A stretch of DNA of 15,141 nt from an uncultured Thermococci archaeon (GTDB lineage Archaea > Methanobacteriota_B > Thermococci > Thermococcales > Thermococcaceae). Location of the stretch: contig CAZTOS010000036.1 of NCBI GenBank assembly GCA_964615185.1, positions 6,985 to 22,125 of the forward strand, written 5' to 3'. This document shows, in pieces, positions 4,538-13,777 of the stretch. Below the pieces are notes generated by a model. That model was not told the origin of the DNA, did not search any database, and saw only the letters and a list, made by a program, of their open reading frames with translations. Numbering within the stretch: the first letter of the stretch is position 1; each line of letters opens with the position of its first letter. A program made the position numbers and the translations under genes.

Positions 4538-4599
4538 ATTGTCAGAAATATGTAAAAATTCAAAGCTTTTAAGGTTTATTTTGACAGAAAAATGTTAAA
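4538..4599 (-). promoter_or_regulatory. purL promoter: TATA flanked by two 20-bp palindromic boxes
   Basis: Plus-strand boxes ATTGTCAG-AAAT-ATGTAAAA (4538-4557) and TTTGACAG-AAAA-ATGTTAAA (4580-4599), with minus-strand ATAAACCTTAAAAG between them. Same layout as upstream of purD. Confidence 0.7.
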
Positions 4600-4625
4600 A
4601 CATTACACCTCTAAATTTGATTTAT

Positions 4626-5855
4626 CTAGGATTTCTTTCTAAAATAATGCATTACAAAACAAAATGCAAATAAAGCTATGATTATTTCTAGGATACCTGC
4701 TGCAAGAAGCACAAAGTTAACTCCCATTCTATCTGCAAGCATTCCACCCACCCCTATTGAAATAAGAGAGAAAGCTGAAACTATGAAGTACTCGAATGAC
4801 AAAACCCTTCCCAAAAAGTTTGATGGAACAATTTTTTGAAATAATGTCTCTAAGGAAATATTGATGACACTATTTGCAATACCATTGAAGATTGCTATGG
4901 CAGCCGCTAGAGGTAAATAATGTACTTGGCTCCACATTATAGGAGCCAATGCGGTCATAAAGAGGCCCAAAATAAATGTTATATCATCGGAGAATCTATC
5001 TCCTACGAGACTCATGAGAAAACTCCCAATGAAAAATCCCGCACCAAGAGCTGTAAGCAACACACCATAGCTAACTTCAGCTGAAGTCGCTAGATTTGAG
5101 GAATAAGGAACTAAAAGCACGTTTATTATTCCCCCACCTATCATAATCCCACCTGAGATCAGAAGGAGCATGAATACAGATTTAGATGTCCTAACAAACG
5201 CTAACCCTAATTTTATCTCCTCCAGAAAGTTTCTGTCTTGGTCAAAATTTAACTCCTCAGTTATATCTATTTTTGTAATAAGTACAGCTGAAATTCCAAA
5301 GATTATGCTCGCCAAAAGGGGCATGTATTCTCTCCCAATTGCAAGGATTATTATAGAGGCAAGTGTGGGACCTAATGTATCTATTAGATCATCTGCTAGA
5401 GTCAGAAATGAATTAGCTGTTTTTAGCTGTTCAGTTTTAACTATTGAAGGGATTATTGCAGAGCGGGCAGTTCCAAAAAATAATGAGCAGGCATCAAGCA
5501 AAAATGTCACCAAATATAAATACAGCAGAAGGTAGATACTAAAAGAGAACTTAAAAACAGTAGCAATTGACAAAACAAAAATAGCTTTGAAAAGAGTTGA
5601 AAGTACCATAACTTTTTTTCTACCATATCTATCCACGATTACCCCTACTATTGGTGAAAGCAGTAAAAGCGATAACGTTTTTGCTATAAAGACTCCAGAG
5701 GTATTTGCTGTAGATAATTGATTGTAGATGTAAAATACTACACCAATAAAGAAGAGATATTCAGCAATTCGTGAGATTAGCTGATTGCTTAGGAGATAAA
5801 GGAAATTTTTCTGTGTAAGGAGTTCTTTTTTGGAAGTTGAATTTACAATTTCCAT
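4626..5855 (-). CDS. MFS transporter (H+-antiporter/MefA-like exporter), 409 aa
   Basis: Many hydrophobic segments consistent with 12 TM; MFS motif A GVIVDRYGRKK; PSNFLGRVLS; GGMLADRMG. Start at ATG 5855 with SD GGAGG at 5865-5869 (the track start 5897 lies inside the upstream gene). Confidence 0.9.
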   Translation of the reverse strand: MEIVNSTSKKELLTQKNFLYLLSNQLISRIAEYLFFIGVVFYIYNQLSTANTSGVFIAKTLSLLLLSPIVGVIVDRYGRKKVMVLSTLFKAIFVLSIATVFKFSFSIYLLLYLYLVTFLLDACSLFFGTARSAIIPSIVKTEQLKTANSFLTLADDLIDTLGPTLASIIILAIGREYMPLLASIIFGISAVLITKIDITEELNFDQDRNFLEEIKLGLAFVRTSKSVFMLLLISGGIMIGGGIINVLLVPYSSNLATSAEVSYGVLLTALGAGFFIGSFLMSLVGDRFSDDITFILGLFMTALAPIMWSQVHYLPLAAAIAIFNGIANSVINISLETLFQKIVPSNFLGRVLSFEYFIVSAFSLISIGVGGMLADRMGVNFVLLAAGILEIIIALFAFCFVMHYFRKKS

Positions 5856-5874
5856 AATTTCAGCCCTCCAGATT

Positions 5875-6837
5875 TTATGGAGATAAACTATACTCATAAA
5901 TCCGTTTTAAAATTGGTTTATAACCTAGTTTGAATTTAGTAATAGAATGCCCCTCACTATTTTCTGGTGGAGCATTTACCATATTGTACTCTTTGTAGTT
6001 ATTTTTAATTCCATATTTAATAACGCTCCATTGAATTGCATTTGCTGGCCTATAATATGAGTACTCCCTATCCATATTGCCCAATGGGTAACCTAAAACA
6101 CTGTTATATGTGGTGATATACGCAAAAGCAACAACTTTTCCATCAACTTTTGCTAAAAATACCTTTAAATAGCCGTTTTTTATTGATTTTTCAGTTACTT
6201 GAGATAATATTGCCTTATCGGACATCAAACTCCCAATTTTTTTCTTGTCAATTAAATGTTCTATGTTACCAATAGAAAATTTGTTCTCTTTAATAATAAC
6301 TTTGGTGCCTCTTTTCTCTGCCTGCCGTATTGCCCTTCTAGTTGAACTTTTTAGAGAATTAAATATTTCGTTTTCATTTCTCCCCTTGAGTATTATAATT
6401 GGGGTCTGTATTTCTGTTGGGTATAATCCCAGCTTTCTGAGTGCAACATTTAGCAGGATATTTTCTTCTGTTGTGTATATTCTTAGTAGATAATAATCAA
6501 ACTTCTTTGATGAAAAATCTAAAAAGTTTATAAGTGCATTAATGCCATTCTTTACCAAATTACAGTTATTAGAAAAGATTTCTATGCCAGAACCATAAAC
6601 ACCCCCAATCTCCTCCAATACATATTTTTTCCCGTTAAGTTCTTCCATCATGATTTTGCTTTGAATCATAATTATAGGTCCATTTCTATTTTCAATAACT
6701 AATCGCCTTGGTTTTATCCATCTTTTTTCAGACTCAGCGTCTAGACAAGAGTAATAGTTCCATGATTTGTGTCTGTTTGTGGCTTTAACATACTCTTCCC
6801 ATTCACTCTTTTCTGCTTCACGAACTCTTAAAGTCAT
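5875..6837 (-). CDS. FemAB/FemX-like GNAT-fold transferase, 320 aa
   Basis: IFNSLKSSTRRAIRQAEKRG, VFLAKVDGKVVA, YRPANAIQWSVIKYG and ITKFKLGY match recalled FemAB/Acetyltransf_6 patterns. True start ATG 6837 follows SD GGAGGAGGT (6841-6849). The track's 29-aa N-terminal extension is translated T-rich intergenic DNA. Confidence 0.8.
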   Translation of the reverse strand: MTLRVREAEKSEWEEYVKATNRHKSWNYYSCLDAESEKRWIKPRRLVIENRNGPIIMIQSKIMMEELNGKKYVLEEIGGVYGSGIEIFSNNCNLVKNGINALINFLDFSSKKFDYYLLRIYTTEENILLNVALRKLGLYPTEIQTPIIILKGRNENEIFNSLKSSTRRAIRQAEKRGTKVIIKENKFSIGNIEHLIDKKKIGSLMSDKAILSQVTEKSIKNGYLKVFLAKVDGKVVAFAYITTYNSVLGYPLGNMDREYSYYRPANAIQWSVIKYGIKNNYKEYNMVNAPPENSEGHSITKFKLGYKPILKRIYEYSLSP

Positions 6838-6850
6838 TTTACCTCCTCCA

Positions 6851-6889
6851 AAAATAATAAAGAAATAATAAAAAAGAAAAGGTAAAGAT
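6851..6889 (-). terminator. Oligo-T terminator/attenuator-like tract after the peptide gene
   Basis: Minus strand ATCTTTACCTTTTCTTTTTTATTATTTCTTTATTATTTT directly follows the peptide stop codon. Oligo-T runs act as intrinsic terminators in Thermococcales. Confidence 0.5.
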
Positions 6890-7003
6890 TCAAAGGTAGG
6901 TATTTTTGCACTGTCCCATGCCATTCTTTATTGTCATCAAGGTATAGGTTTTGTCCTTTTCATTCTCCTCTTCAACTTTTGGAGGCTTGTAGACTTTCTT
7001 CAT
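6890..7003 (-). CDS. Putative RiPP precursor peptide, 37 aa: MKKVYKPPKVEEENEKDKTYTLMTIKNGMGQCKNTYL
   Basis: Not in the ORF track; translated by hand. ATG 7001-7003 overlaps the radical SAM stop (ATGA). Strong SD GGAGGTGA at 7010-7017, 6 nt from the ATG. N-terminal YKPPKV fits the YxxPx(L/V) RRE-recognition motif. TGA at 6890-6892. Confidence 0.85.
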   Translation of the reverse strand: MKKVYKPPKVEEENEKDKTYTLMTIKNGMGQCKNTYL

Positions 7004-8421
7004 GCAGCATCACCTCCTTTTTGTTGTAGAATACCCATGAGAGATAGGTTATTTACAAAAAAGCATATATCCTCTAAGACAACACGTTTATCAAGTCCTT
7101 CACTTTCTAGTTCAGCTACTAACCATTCTGCAATATTTTCAGGGGTCATTCCCTCTTCTATTTTCTTGATAACCAACTCTCCCGTATGATTAACTTGTTT
7201 ATATTTCCTAAAAATTGGATCATATACATAAAGAGCCCCATTTTTTGTAAGTATCTTATCGTTATTTATATGGAATCTTCTATTCTTAATACTCTGAATG
7301 AACCTTAATTTTTGTTTGACTACTTCCTGACATTCCCTTACATTGATTTGATTGTAATATCTAAATGGACACTGAATACAAGTATCCCTAAAAGAGCATA
7401 GAACACATGGGCTACGATTTGCTCTGCCAAATTTTTCTTTAAACTCTAGAAAGCTTAGGAAATACTCAGAGTTCAGGACCTCCTCTACAGAAGTGACATT
7501 TTTTATATTAATATCCTCTAGTTTTAATAAGCCATTTTGTATGGGTTTAGTGTTGTAAAATGGATTATCTGCCATTCCACAGGGATGAAGAGTGCCATCA
7601 GCCTCCATTAACCAATGAATTGTCCCTGCACCACATCCAACATTCCGCGGGTGAATTGCCAAATCAAGATCATATTTTTTGTTTAGATACTCACCTAATG
7701 AGGGCAGGGTATCTATTTGAATGGTAACATCATGTAGTTTATCCCTGTTTTTCCAGCAACTTTTTGCAAGTTCTTCATATGCAAATATCCTTTCCTCATC
7801 ACTATAGTATAGATTATCCCGATTAGTAAGTGCATCTCCAGATATGTATAAATCCATCACACCTAAAGCATCAATGCCTAATTGTATTGCAAGACCTACT
7901 AACTTATCCATTTGATGAAGGTTGTATTTTGTTAAAGTAAATGCTATTCCAATTTTTATAGGGGACTGGTACTCTTCTTTAATTTCTTTGAATAATTTTA
8001 TGTTTTTTATAACCCTTTGGAATGTTCCTTTCCCTCTAATCTTATCATTCACCTCTTCCGTGGCACCATCTAAGCTAAATACAAATTGAGAGACTCCCAA
8101 TTCAATTAAACGTTTGATCTTATCTACATTAAGTAAAATTCCATTACTATTGATAGTAACTTCCATTTCATAATTTCTGGCATATTCTATTAATTCAAAC
8201 AAATCATGCCTAACAAGAGGTTCTCCTCCTAGCAAGTGTATATGCCTAAAGCCAAATTTGCTGATTTTTTCTATTGCTTCTTTTGCTTCTTCAGTTGTTA
8301 GTTCATTTTTAATGCCTGTACGTGGATACTTTACTGTGTTGTAACAATGTATACATCTTAAATTACATTTGGAGGTTATATCCCACAGGAGTGTTTTTAA
8401 ATCTACATGATGTTTACCCAT
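7000..8421 (-). CDS. Radical SAM/SPASM maturase with C-terminal PqqD/RRE domain, 473 aa
   Basis: CNLRCIHC (C19/C23/C26), GGEP, SLDG and DKIRGKGTF core motifs. SPASM Cys at C263-x12-G-x4-C281 and C339-x2-C342-x5-C348-x2-C351-x12-C364. The C-terminal ~90 aa (VNHTGELVIKKIEEGMTPENIAEWL...DICFFVNNLSLMGIL) follow the PqqD pattern. Confidence 0.92.
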   Translation of the reverse strand: MGKHHVDLKTLLWDITSKCNLRCIHCYNTVKYPRTGIKNELTTEEAKEAIEKISKFGFRHIHLLGGEPLVRHDLFELIEYARNYEMEVTINSNGILLNVDKIKRLIELGVSQFVFSLDGATEEVNDKIRGKGTFQRVIKNIKLFKEIKEEYQSPIKIGIAFTLTKYNLHQMDKLVGLAIQLGIDALGVMDLYISGDALTNRDNLYYSDEERIFAYEELAKSCWKNRDKLHDVTIQIDTLPSLGEYLNKKYDLDLAIHPRNVGCGAGTIHWLMEADGTLHPCGMADNPFYNTKPIQNGLLKLEDINIKNVTSVEEVLNSEYFLSFLEFKEKFGRANRSPCVLCSFRDTCIQCPFRYYNQINVRECQEVVKQKLRFIQSIKNRRFHINNDKILTKNGALYVYDPIFRKYKQVNHTGELVIKKIEEGMTPENIAEWLVAELESEGLDKRVVLEDICFFVNNLSLMGILQQKGGDAA

Positions 8422-8472
8422 ATTATCACTTTCAATCTGTTCTCTTTTATTATTATATCACAAAGTAACCTG

Positions 8473-8487
8473 TATTTAAATTTTTCG
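8473..8487 (-). promoter_or_regulatory. BRE-TATA promoter for the radical SAM operon
   Basis: Minus strand CGAAAAA-TTTAAATA about 50 nt upstream of ATG 8421. Weak SD AGTGAT just upstream of the ATG. Confidence 0.65.
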
Positions 8488-8602
8488 GTTTTGTCATTTT
8501 GAACACCGAGAGGTATTTAATTTTTTTAAAAAAGCATGCCACTAGAAAGCCCATTTTAACAAATTCACAATTTTTAATGAAGTAAAACTTCGAAAAGTAA
8601 TT

Positions 8603-8626
8603 AAGAAATTGAATAAAAATCAAAAA
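8603..8626 (-). terminator. T-rich terminator after purQ
   Basis: Minus strand TTTTTGATTTTTATTCAATTTCTT immediately follows the purQ stop. Confidence 0.5.
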
Positions 8627-12104: not shown

Positions 12105-12536
12105 ATGAAGGTGCTCGTTGTCATGGGTAGCAAAAGTGACTCTCACATAGCTGAAAAAGTCACAAAAGTGCTGGATGAATTTGGCGTTAAATACGATGTT
12201 GAAGTTGCTTCAGCCCATAGGAACCCTAAAAAGGTTGAAGAGCTGGCAAAAAAAGACTACGACATTTTCATAGCCATTGCCGGACTCAGCGCAGCTTTGC
12301 CTGGAGTTATAGCTTCCCACACAACAAAACCCGTTATTGGTGTTCCAGTCTCTGCCAAGCTCGGCGGCTTAGATGCTCTTTTGAGCATAGCTCAGATGCC
12401 TCCTGGAATTCCGGTTGCTGCGGTAGGAATAGACAATGGAAAGAATGCGGCTTTGCTTGCTATTGAGATTTTGGCGCTAAAAGATGAGAGCTTAAAGAAA
12501 AAGCTTGAGGAATACAGAGAAAAGATGAGAAGTTAA
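12105..12536 (+). CDS. purE: PurE (AIR carboxylase / N5-CAIR mutase), 143 aa
   Basis: [42 protein letters not shown] 12105 with SD GGTGG at 12096-12100. Confidence 0.96.
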
Positions 12537-13777
12537 ACAAGTGCTTCCAAGCTTCTTTTTGCAATTTTTATGAGTTCCTCGGGAGTTAATACTTCAATCC
12601 CTTCAGGTTCTCTTTCGAGGGCGTCCTCAGATGGAACAACAAGAACCTTCCTGCATCTGAACTTAGAGAGTTTTTCCTCAATTTTTTTCACTTCTTCACG
12701 CTTAACCCTGCTTTTCCACTTAACCTCTCCTATCAGCTCAAGTTTGCTGAAGCCCATTAGTGCGATATCAAGCTCAAGATCTGGGAGCTCAACCTTTACT
12801 GGCCTCAGGCCATAAGCCTTAGCCAGAAGACTCTCAATGAAGCCCTCAACATGCCTTGGAACCTTCTCATCAACAGCCTTCCTAATGAACTCTTTGGGTG
12901 TCTCAAGCTCGGTGTAGGCATACTTTGCCTCAAGATAGAAGTGGAGGTCAAGGAGGGGGGATGCTATTGAGTAGCGGAAGCGCCTTTTCTTTCCATGGAT
13001 TGGCTTTTTCTTTATGAATCCCATCGAGGACAGCACTTTGAGATACTTCTGGATGCTGGAGGGGGATTCAATTAATCCTTTGGAAAGCAGATAGCTTCCA
13101 ATTTCACCGCTCTTTGATTTTCCATCCGCTATCGAATGAAGAACACCCTGATAAACCTCGGAGAAGAAAACCTCTTCTTCAGTAAAAGTTTCTCCTATGA
13201 GATCCTTAATGACCGGCGCTGAAGAGTGCAGGTAATCAGTCAGGAACTCCCTGAGTGGAGGCTTGTAAGAGGGTACGAGCATTGGCTCACGGAGGTACGT
13301 TGAAGCCTCAATAATTTCTTTTCCATCCACTTCCTTTGACAGCTCTACGAGGATCTCTCTTTCGTCGATTAGACCAACCTTGACGGGAAGCACTATCCCG
13401 AGGAGGGGACTTTCACGCATTGAGAGAATTCTCACTGCCAGCCATAGGGTCGAAGTTATGAGAATAAGCTCGCTTTCCAAGGTCGAGTAAGCGTGAAGGA
13501 GATCAAGAAAGCCATCTGGAAGGCGATGAAACTCATCTATTATAATTTTCTCTTTTCCAAGATGGTCAAGGAATTCTTTCCGAAACTCATCGTAGTTCAT
13601 GTACTTGCCTGAAGTTAAATCGAGTATAGTCCCATCACGATTTACGAAGTAGAATTTATCATGTTCAACGAAGTGCTGAACGAGAAAGGTCTTTCCCGTC
13701 TTTCTTCTTCCATAGAGCATTTTCCAGCCTTCACCCTCAAGCTGTGCAAGTTCAATTCTTCTTGGAATGATTCTCAT
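12533..13777 (-). CDS. Archaeal ATPase (ATPase_2-type) with winged-helix region and C-terminal DUF234/PD-(D/E)xK-like domain
   Basis: Walker [10 protein letters not shown] and Walker B IIIDEFH. HTH-like [15 protein letters not shown]...[15 protein letters not shown]-terminal ELDIAL...IGEVKW. Stop overlaps the purE stop (convergent). Confidence 0.88.

Follow-up and report, generated by a model that had tools for sequence, protein, structure and literature searches.

Genes and features of the island

The DNA analyzed here (the window) is a stretch of 15,141 nucleotides from an uncultured Thermococci archaeon (assembly GCA_964615185.1, contig CAZTOS010000036.1, positions 6,985 to 22,125). It includes a low-G+C island inserted between purL and purQ of a PurP-type purine operon. 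The island harbors a cassette of four genes coding for a radical S-adenosylmethionine (radical SAM)/SPASM enzyme, a 37-amino acid peptide, a FemX-like transferase and an MFS transporter (Table 1). The peptide, which is the subject of this report, is, as judged from its sequence and its gene neighborhood, an archaeal member, divergent and acquired horizontally, of a family of radical SAM-dependent peptides that are made by ribosomes and modified after translation (RiPPs). Members of this family share a GMGxC core.

Table 1. Location of the features discussed in the text. Positions are those of the window unless a locus name (L followed by a number) is given; RRE, RiPP recognition element; ORF, open reading frame; LPP, linear polyphosphorylated peptide.
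Feature	Location	Strand	Basis or remarks
Low-G+C island, about 4 kb, between purL and purQ	4564..8626		GC content, synteny, distribution
MFS transporter (efflux type)	4626..5897	minus	Pfam MFS_1 7e-27; TIGR00900 1e-53, below cutoff
FemX/FemAB-like two-domain GNAT-fold transferase, 320 amino acids	5875..6837	minus	Pfam FemAB 3.4e-10, Acetyltransf_6 2e-8
T-rich 52-nucleotide spacer from the peptide gene to the next gene	6838..6889	minus	Ends in GGAGGAGGT before the ATG at 6837
Precursor peptide gene, 37 amino acids, stop codon included	6890..7003	minus	ORF, family profile, public gene calls
Conserved core K26-N-G-M-G-Q-C32-K-N-T-Y-L37	6893..6928	minus	Family alignment; GMGxC at 6908-6922
Leader motif Y5-K-P-P8-K-V10, fitting YxxPxV	6974..6991	minus	Family conservation
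ATGA in which the peptide start codon and the radical SAM stop codon (TGA 7002-7000) overlap	7000..7003	minus	Sequence
Shine-Dalgarno-like GGAGGTGA	7010..7017	minus	6 nucleotides before the ATG, within the last radical SAM codons (...K G G D A A stop)
Radical SAM/SPASM maturase, 473 amino acids	7000..8421	minus	Pfam Radical_SAM 5.9e-30
C-terminal RRE, PqqD-like winged helix, residues about 380-467, fused to the radical SAM enzyme	7021..7284	minus	Model, Foldseek, profile
Seven SPASM cysteines, C263-C364	7330-7635	minus	Conserved in alignments A1 and A4
CxxxCxxC (C19, C23, C26)	8344-8367	minus	Invariant in radical SAM alignments A1 and A4
Elusimicrobia-type peptides	L030 7304-7429; L071 4023-4139; L065 2171-2287; L084 4048-4164		Two extra Cys
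LPP-like accessory genes	L054 4066-4401; L060 5658-6002, 9023-11034; L029 8736-9665; L028 9382-9735
Different purQ-purL inserts	L118 6820-8688 (G002); L120 1227-3424 (G003)		Congener comparison

The precursor peptide gene

The peptide frame opens at the ATG at 7003-7001 of the minus strand, runs for 37 codons and closes at the TGA at 6892-6890; its translation is MKKVYKPPKVEEENEKDKTYTLMTIKNGMGQCKNTYL. An earlier note on this DNA had described the frame, the Shine-Dalgarno-like sequence GGAGGTGA, the ATGA overlap and a C-terminal half free of acidic residues, and all of these were found in the sequence as described. Cys32 is the only cysteine, and residues 19-37 include no acidic residue, two Tyr (Y20 and Y36) and four Thr (T19, T21, T24 and T35).

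A profile hidden Markov model was built from 97 non-redundant family peptides, with the window ORF left out, and compared with the full set of stop-to-stop ORFs of the genome (62,962, each 20 amino acids or longer). The window ORF was the sole significant match (expectation value [E] 1.4e-7, 32.5 bits), the runner-up having an E of 1.6. Since a profile made without this ORF matches it alone among the 62,962, the 37-codon ORF is, by this comparison, predicted to be a real, conserved precursor gene, beyond what chance would produce.

The gene had been thought to be hidden, masked by gene callers that would extend the downstream gene to an alternative frame of 349 amino acids, which starts at 6924 and overlaps the peptide frame. 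This claim is refuted because the public calls already hold both the peptide and the 320-amino acid form of the neighbor. The exact 37-amino acid protein is present in the public protein collection (sources NCBI, JGI/IMG, ENA, gem and Logan), as is the 320-amino acid form (NCBI, JGI/IMG, ENA and gem); the 349-amino acid form is absent there. A 257-amino acid call in another genome (P0213) ends in a typical family peptide (YxxP ... SGMGLCKVTY) and is probably an over-extended gene call, i.e. masking would happen elsewhere and not in the window.

Besides the possible source sample, near-identical DNA was found in sequencing runs of three studies (X2, X3 and X4/X5). No difference within the peptide ORF is listed for runs X2 and X3. 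Run X4 represents an approximately 98%-identical strain with 60 substitutions over 2,701 nucleotides. The five differences listed for it within the peptide ORF, four synonymous substitutions (L37, L22, Y20 and K6) and M23L in the variable linker, favor a functional precursor gene. In this strain the spacer at 6838-6889, which would be part of the supposed extension, has substitutions at 6842, 6844, 6874, 6876 and 6885 as well as a 9-nucleotide deletion at 6861, a dense polymorphism that fits a non-coding spacer.

A family of peptides with a GMGxC core

An alignment of the window radical SAM enzyme and its closest homologues was used to fetch 86 loci. A family ORF is present in 49 of the 86, always on the strand of the radical SAM gene, a count that takes in the window's own contig and several duplicate records and is descriptive rather than a test, the profile having been built from many of the same peptides. 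All but one of the 49 family ORFs (48/49) lie at most 479 nucleotides from a radical SAM match. The peptide-less loci in which the radical SAM enzyme is at least 33% identical are mostly short contigs ending inside or just after the radical SAM gene; the other peptide-less loci hold distant radical SAM proteins (24-32% identity). A GGAGG-type site precedes the start codon in most family ORFs at other loci. Depending on the cluster, the peptide gene is located either upstream or downstream of the radical SAM gene. The order radical SAM, peptide, MFS recurs in locus L044, where the MFS protein is 34% identical to that of the window, and ABC or MFS exporter genes accompany the peptide in most annotated loci. 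The loci for which a name was available belong to Bacillota, Elusimicrobiota, candidate phyla and DPANN-type archaea, and a protein from Petrotoga (Thermotogota) is also named by one of the sources. The recurrence of homologous small ORFs, on the same strand and adjoining radical SAM/SPASM homologues, supports the assignment of the window ORF as a RiPP precursor functionally tied to the neighboring radical SAM enzyme.

Conservation was counted over 98 non-redundant family sequences, the window peptide among them. In the leader, [YF]xxP is found in 96 of the 98, and each of these 96 has V, I, L or M at the second position past the Pro; in the family peptide alignment (A2) P8 is invariant and Y5 is at least 90% conserved. 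YxxPxV, which had been singled out as a lasso-type leader motif, is then a conserved feature of the family. The search beside radical SAM homologues for conserved core residues, suggested at the same time, yielded GMGxC, usually with KxT[YFW]. The GMGxC segment is essentially invariant (G 98/98, M 98/98, G 97/98, C 98/98). It is preceded by S or N (95/98) and, at position -2, by R or K (97/98), and the Cys is followed by K (92/98), T (91/98) and an aromatic residue (89/98; Y 50, F 32, W 7), the usual form being (R/K)SGMGxCKxT[YFW]. The spacing from the leader Pro to the first core Gly is usually 19 in the family and 20 in the window peptide.

The core had been placed in the C-terminal 19 or so amino acids. 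Conservation begins only at (R/K)-(S/N)-G-M-G, which reduces the predicted conserved core to about 11-13 residues (K26/N27 to L37) and leaves residues 11-25 as a putative variable linker. The repeated TY(T)L elements, proposed as aromatic cross-link sites, fare differently: T35-Y36 coincides with conserved positions, and KTYTL falls within the unconserved linker. The other cross-link candidate of that proposal, C32, gains from the comparison; because this Cys is invariant in the core, a Cys-based cross-link is a reasonable guess. The very tight conservation of the core suggests a specific, possibly new cross-link.

The family was recovered independently from two protein collections: in a word-indexed one of 5.8 billion proteins there were 84 family clusters at E<=10, and in the other an exhaustive profile search of 1.84 billion representatives gave 73 matches at E<=0.001, a few of which are repeat-protein false positives (e.g., P0229). 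No family member found bears a Pfam domain or a name beyond 'hypothetical protein', and a scan of 12 members against Pfam and NCBIfam gave nothing meaningful. The nearest clusters in the ESM Atlas are all annotated as 'hypothetical protein' (0.82-0.86), and the nearest named cluster is a lasso leader family at 0.77, below the level deemed meaningful. No relevant paper was among those listed for the core-motif strings in the full-text literature, a search with subscription journals and supplementary tables outside its scope, and queries on radical SAM RiPPs in archaea, or on radical SAM with Petrotoga or Caloranaerobacter, returned nothing on the GMGxC family within the searchable papers. By these searches the family is uncharacterized in curated libraries and searchable literature, and with about 70-85 sequence clusters it would define a family of RiPP precursors.

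The radical SAM/SPASM enzyme and its fused RRE

Among 51 sequences three of the SPASM cysteines (C263, C281 and C339) never vary, and conservation of the other four (C342, C348, C351 and C364) is at least 90%. The AlphaFold2 model of the enzyme is confident, with a predicted local distance difference test score (pLDDT) of 93.7 and a predicted template modeling score of 0.91. By Foldseek the enzyme is closest to the RiPP maturases SkfB, CteB and SuiB, with BlsE and anSME coming next, and its best sequence match in the PDB is CteB (1.7e-14), followed by PqqE, GDGT-MAS and SkfB. None of the NCBIfam equivalog models reaches its cutoff on the window enzyme; among the thioether maturases PapB scores 72 vs. 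a cutoff of 340 and StsB 101.6 vs. 625.

The earlier note had placed a RiPP recognition element at residues 380-470 or so of the enzyme, and such a domain is found there. Modeled separately, residues 371-473 (pLDDT 94) form strands followed by three helices. The top Foldseek matches of this domain are TfuB1 (6jx3_B, E 4e-4, target-normalized template modeling score 0.78), TbiB1 (5v1u/5v1v) and PqqD. A profile made from 19 homologues (A5) matched TbiB1 (2.5e-10), a 'PqqD family protein' (1.4e-7) and TfuB1 (2.3e-6) in the PDB, in addition to a spurious WD-40 match with no qualifying stretch. The nearest solved relatives, TfuB1 and TbiB1, are lasso B1 proteins that were crystallized with leader peptides. 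The window system thus resembles the lasso pair in combining a YxxPx(L/V/I) leader with a B1-type RRE, for which the lasso proteins are the best profile and fold matches. It differs in that the RRE is fused to the C-terminus of a radical SAM/SPASM enzyme and in the location of the leader Pro: in lasso leaders this residue is at about position -14, while in the family, by our own count and with the leader taken to end at the conserved R/K, it is at about -18. A lasso peptide as such was considered and discarded, as the four-gene island has neither an Asn-synthetase-like cyclase nor a transglutaminase-like B2 peptidase, and the Asp or Glu that a macrolactam would require at core position 7-9 is missing.

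Leader conservation, RRE sequence profile and RRE fold agree with each other and support a lasso-type leader/RRE reading, in which the radical SAM enzyme probably recognizes the peptide through this leader motif. According to a recent report, discrete lasso RREs recognize a [Y/W]xxPx[L/V/I/F/A] motif, and a second, non-lasso family uses a YxxPxV leader with a lasso-like RRE (PMC13381572). In the window system a radical SAM enzyme would have put the same module of leader and B1-like RRE to new use, extending the recent finding that this recognition pair is common to different RiPP classes.

Proposed maturation of the peptide

The following scheme can be proposed. The peptide would be translated by coupling to the radical SAM gene, as suggested by the Shine-Dalgarno-like sequence and the ATGA overlap. 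Its leader (Y5-x-x-P8-x-V10) would dock on the winged-helix RRE of the radical SAM enzyme as lasso leaders do on B1 proteins, an expectation based on the conservation of the motif and on the similarity of the RRE to lasso B1 in both fold and sequence. The SPASM enzyme would then modify the conserved core N27-G-M-G-Q-C32-K-N-T-Y-L37. Taken jointly, translational coupling, leader-RRE docking and the role of the peptide as a substrate of the radical SAM enzyme seem quite probable to us. The FemX-like enzyme could next attach an amino acid or an acyl moiety to a residue such as Lys33, which is nearly invariant, a step that is speculative, and the MFS pump would presumably export the product.

The leading candidate for the reaction is an intramolecular thioether linking the invariant Cys32 to a neighboring residue, either Met29 (i-3) or Thr35 (i+3). 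This is a guess by analogy, which we put forward tentatively and at somewhat less than an even chance; acceptors of this kind are found in NxxC, SkfA (Cys-Met) and SCIFF (Cys-Thr) chemistry. The CteB/SCIFF ranthipeptide, SkfB sactipeptide and archaeal CrpC systems share with that of the window a CxxxCxxC radical SAM enzyme with SPASM and RRE regions and a short substrate that contains Cys. CteB has an N-terminal RRE, while that of the window enzyme is C-terminal, and the single Cys of the window peptide is part of an invariant GMGxC, unlike the Cys-rich SCIFF peptides. The report on CrpC describes archaeal SPASM radical SAM enzymes with an RRE that install ranthionine links (PMC13692751). None of the curated Pfam/NCBIfam models of thioether families (SCIFF, PapB, StsB) matches the window peptide or reaches its cutoff on the enzyme.

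Several observations weigh against this scheme. The window peptide is a divergent family member (N in place of S, Q at the x position, 32.5 bits). Pfam SPASM is below threshold on the window enzyme (E 0.0077) and Pfam PqqD is not listed for it; the latter is detected in homologues of the enzyme. Four of the 98 family members stop at the Cys, without the K-x-T-aromatic segment, and many family clusters hold two or three radical SAM enzymes, as a consequence of which the reaction is not readable from conservation alone. The island includes no leader peptidase. Among all fetched loci, tblastn located the FemX-like gene in the contig of the window and nowhere else, so that its role in the pathway rests on adjacency. 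The sole RNA-library run (X12) gave two 251-nucleotide contigs, at 5800-6012 and 7905-8155, which are outside the peptide gene and could be DNA carry-over. Finally, the count of synonymous and non-synonymous differences in the peptide ORF of run X4 is drawn from 40 listed differences, with 26 more unlisted, and may be incomplete.

Alternative explanations

The main rival to the Cys thioether is a streptide-like carbon-carbon cross-link, made by the same enzyme on the same peptide, between Lys33 and Tyr36, with Cys32 serving another role. We regard this as unlikely. In its favor, K is present in 92 of the 98 family sequences and Y, F or W three residues later in 89, the Lys-Trp cross-linking enzyme SuiB is among the top fold matches, and the NCBIfam model of the WgkB-type Trp-Lys maturase matches at 2.4e-28, albeit far below its cutoff. 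The streptide enzymes SuiB/StrB are also radical SAM/SPASM proteins with an RRE, and the window core includes a K-x-T-aromatic segment. In streptide, however, the cross-linked residues have KxxxW spacing, whereas in the window family the aromatic residue is at i+3 from the Lys and is often Phe (32/98), and the invariant residues are those of GMGxC rather than a Lys-aromatic pair. The Cys is present in 98 of 98 sequences, whereas the four members ending in ...SGMGxC have no K, T or aromatic residue, and the top sequence match in the PDB is a thioether enzyme, CteB. Because these four members end at the Cys, a reaction shared by the whole family would involve the S-G-M-G-x-C segment.

A precursor of an intracellular redox cofactor, similar to pyrroloquinoline quinone (PQQ) or mycofactocin and not exported, would have the architecture seen here, a small peptide with a SPASM radical SAM enzyme and a PqqD-like domain, and a conserved Tyr near the peptide C-terminus; the NCBIfam models of the mycofactocin maturase and PqqE match at 9e-33 and 5e-31, respectively. 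Such a role is nevertheless very unlikely. The scores are far under the curated cutoffs (MftC 113.8 vs. 265; PqqE 108 vs. 381), the island has no other PQQ or mycofactocin genes, ABC or MFS exporters lie beside the peptide in most annotated loci, and the aromatic residue is Phe in about a third of the sequences (32/98). That the frame is open by chance or is an untranslated vestige, with another substrate for the radical SAM enzyme, is hardly credible: the frame is short, its product is divergent and the RNA-library contigs lie outside it, but no other ORF of the genome is matched significantly by the profile from which it was left out, it has a Shine-Dalgarno-like sequence and a start-stop overlap, its homologues are kept beside radical SAM homologues across phyla, and the substitutions in the second strain are mostly synonymous.

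In a more far-reaching version of the proposal, the window peptide would be the first from a hyperthermophilic archaeon in a RiPP class that is as yet undescribed. There, a lasso-type leader/RRE pair, fused to a SPASM radical SAM enzyme, would direct a new cross-link in the invariant GMGxC(KxT-aromatic) core (e.g., Cys-Met or Cys-Thr), and in the archaeal version a FemX-like enzyme would add an aminoacyl-tRNA-dependent decoration to the Lys. This combination is improbable as a whole. To our knowledge few modified peptides are known from archaea, and we know of none from hyperthermophilic vent archaea. A thermostable radical SAM maturase with a short, well-defined recognition motif would also be a convenient model enzyme.

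Origin of the island

The G+C content is 0.30-0.38 within the island and 0.40-0.47 in its flanks. In two congeners (G004 and G007) purQ and purL abut, while two others (G002 and G003) carry a different insert of 2.2 kb at the same junction, which is a variable insertion site. The insert of G002 encodes proteins of 192 and 424 amino acids with hydrophobic N-termini.

No ortholog of the radical SAM enzyme was found in 40 relatives, the best matches having 35-39% identity over part of the protein, and when 133 species genomes from the phylum were searched at E<=1e-45 the enzyme was found in one. Fem-like matches were obtained in 3 of 41 genomes at E<=1e-5, those beyond G000 being weak (26-27%). 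The nearest homologues of the radical SAM enzyme, 39-45% identical, are from thermophile or vent-type bacteria and candidate phyla. The low G+C content, the insertion between purQ and purL, the rarity of the radical SAM gene in the phylum and the bacterial or candidate-phylum affiliation of its nearest homologues indicate that the island was probably acquired horizontally by a hydrothermal-vent archaeon. In a quick tree the window enzyme groups with clusters that have a single radical SAM enzyme (P0002-P0007, L045, L047 and L048), with a Shimodaira-Hasegawa approximate likelihood ratio support of 87-88, below the 95% level, and because the tree is quick and weakly supported no donor is claimed. 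No direct or inverted repeats flank the island ends, and an Rfam scan of the window gave no match. The PurP-type purine operon points to an archaeal host; a search of the genome for SSU rRNA gave no match.

The FemX-like transferase, the transporter and the spacer

Besides the Pfam matches listed in Table 1, the 320-amino acid protein is aligned by an NCBIfam FemX-type model over residues 42-303 (E 2.7e-4, below cutoff) and has weak PDB matches to FemA and a lipid II:glycine glycyltransferase (E 0.012). One homologue, of 318 amino acids and 55% identical, was found by the word-index search. By these models the protein resembles the FemX/FemA aminoacyl-tRNA-dependent peptidyl transferases; it differs from them in that its scores are far below the family cutoffs and its gene is located inside a RiPP cassette, and in its setting, an archaeal host in which no Fem-type peptidoglycan bridge would be expected. 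As a matter of speculation from its adjacency and its family, it is a candidate tailoring enzyme that would transfer an aminoacyl or acyl group to the peptide, either on Lys33 or at the N-terminus. The presence of a FemX-like gene within the cassette hints at tRNA-dependent tailoring. We know of no FemX-type RiPP tailoring enzyme, and decoration of the conserved Lys by such an enzyme, if true, would have no known counterpart among RiPP tailoring reactions.

The MFS transporter is likely the exporter of the peptide product. Its start is uncertain, as a frame opening at the first ATG (5897) shares 23 nucleotides with the FemX-like gene. A homologue aligns only from residue 26, and run X4 carries L6P within window positions 5855-5897. 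A later ATG (M15, 5855-5853) may be the true start. The spacer between the peptide and FemX-like genes has runs of five to six T, and it might serve as an oligo-T terminator or attenuator of the archaeal kind, raising the ratio of precursor to tailoring-gene transcripts.

Related clusters and other observations

The LPPs (Popov et al. 2026, PMC13381572) also have a YxxPxV leader that is paired with a lasso-like RRE. The accessory gene set given there for LPP and paeninodin-type clusters comprises an S24/SpI-like peptidase, an HprK-like kinase and NTP_transf_5. Several clostridial or gut members of the GMGxC family share with the LPP clusters this set and an ABC exporter, and their clusters also hold a second or third radical SAM enzyme. 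In these members the SpI-like enzyme may be the leader peptidase. In contrast to the family described here, neither radical SAM, in full or as rSAM, nor SPASM is mentioned in the text of PMC13381572; the window leader matches YxxPxVLxHQxIxFETxxS only in its YxxPxV portion, and the island has no kinase, NTP transferase or SpI.

The Elusimicrobia-type peptides carry two additional Cys (C-x-x-Q-K-C) directly before the (R/K)SGMGxC core, and their clusters have two radical SAM enzymes with C-terminal extensions, which suggests additional cross-links. In locus L077 (3190-8632) a peptide ending in ...SGMGSC is found with two radical SAM enzymes and a discrete PqqD, and genes for an Asn-synthase-like and a transglutaminase-like protein, i.e. 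lasso-type machinery, directly adjoin the peptide/radical SAM group. Outside the island, a gene for a 414-amino acid AAA_14-type ATPase is located between purE and purT on the minus strand of the window (12533-13777).

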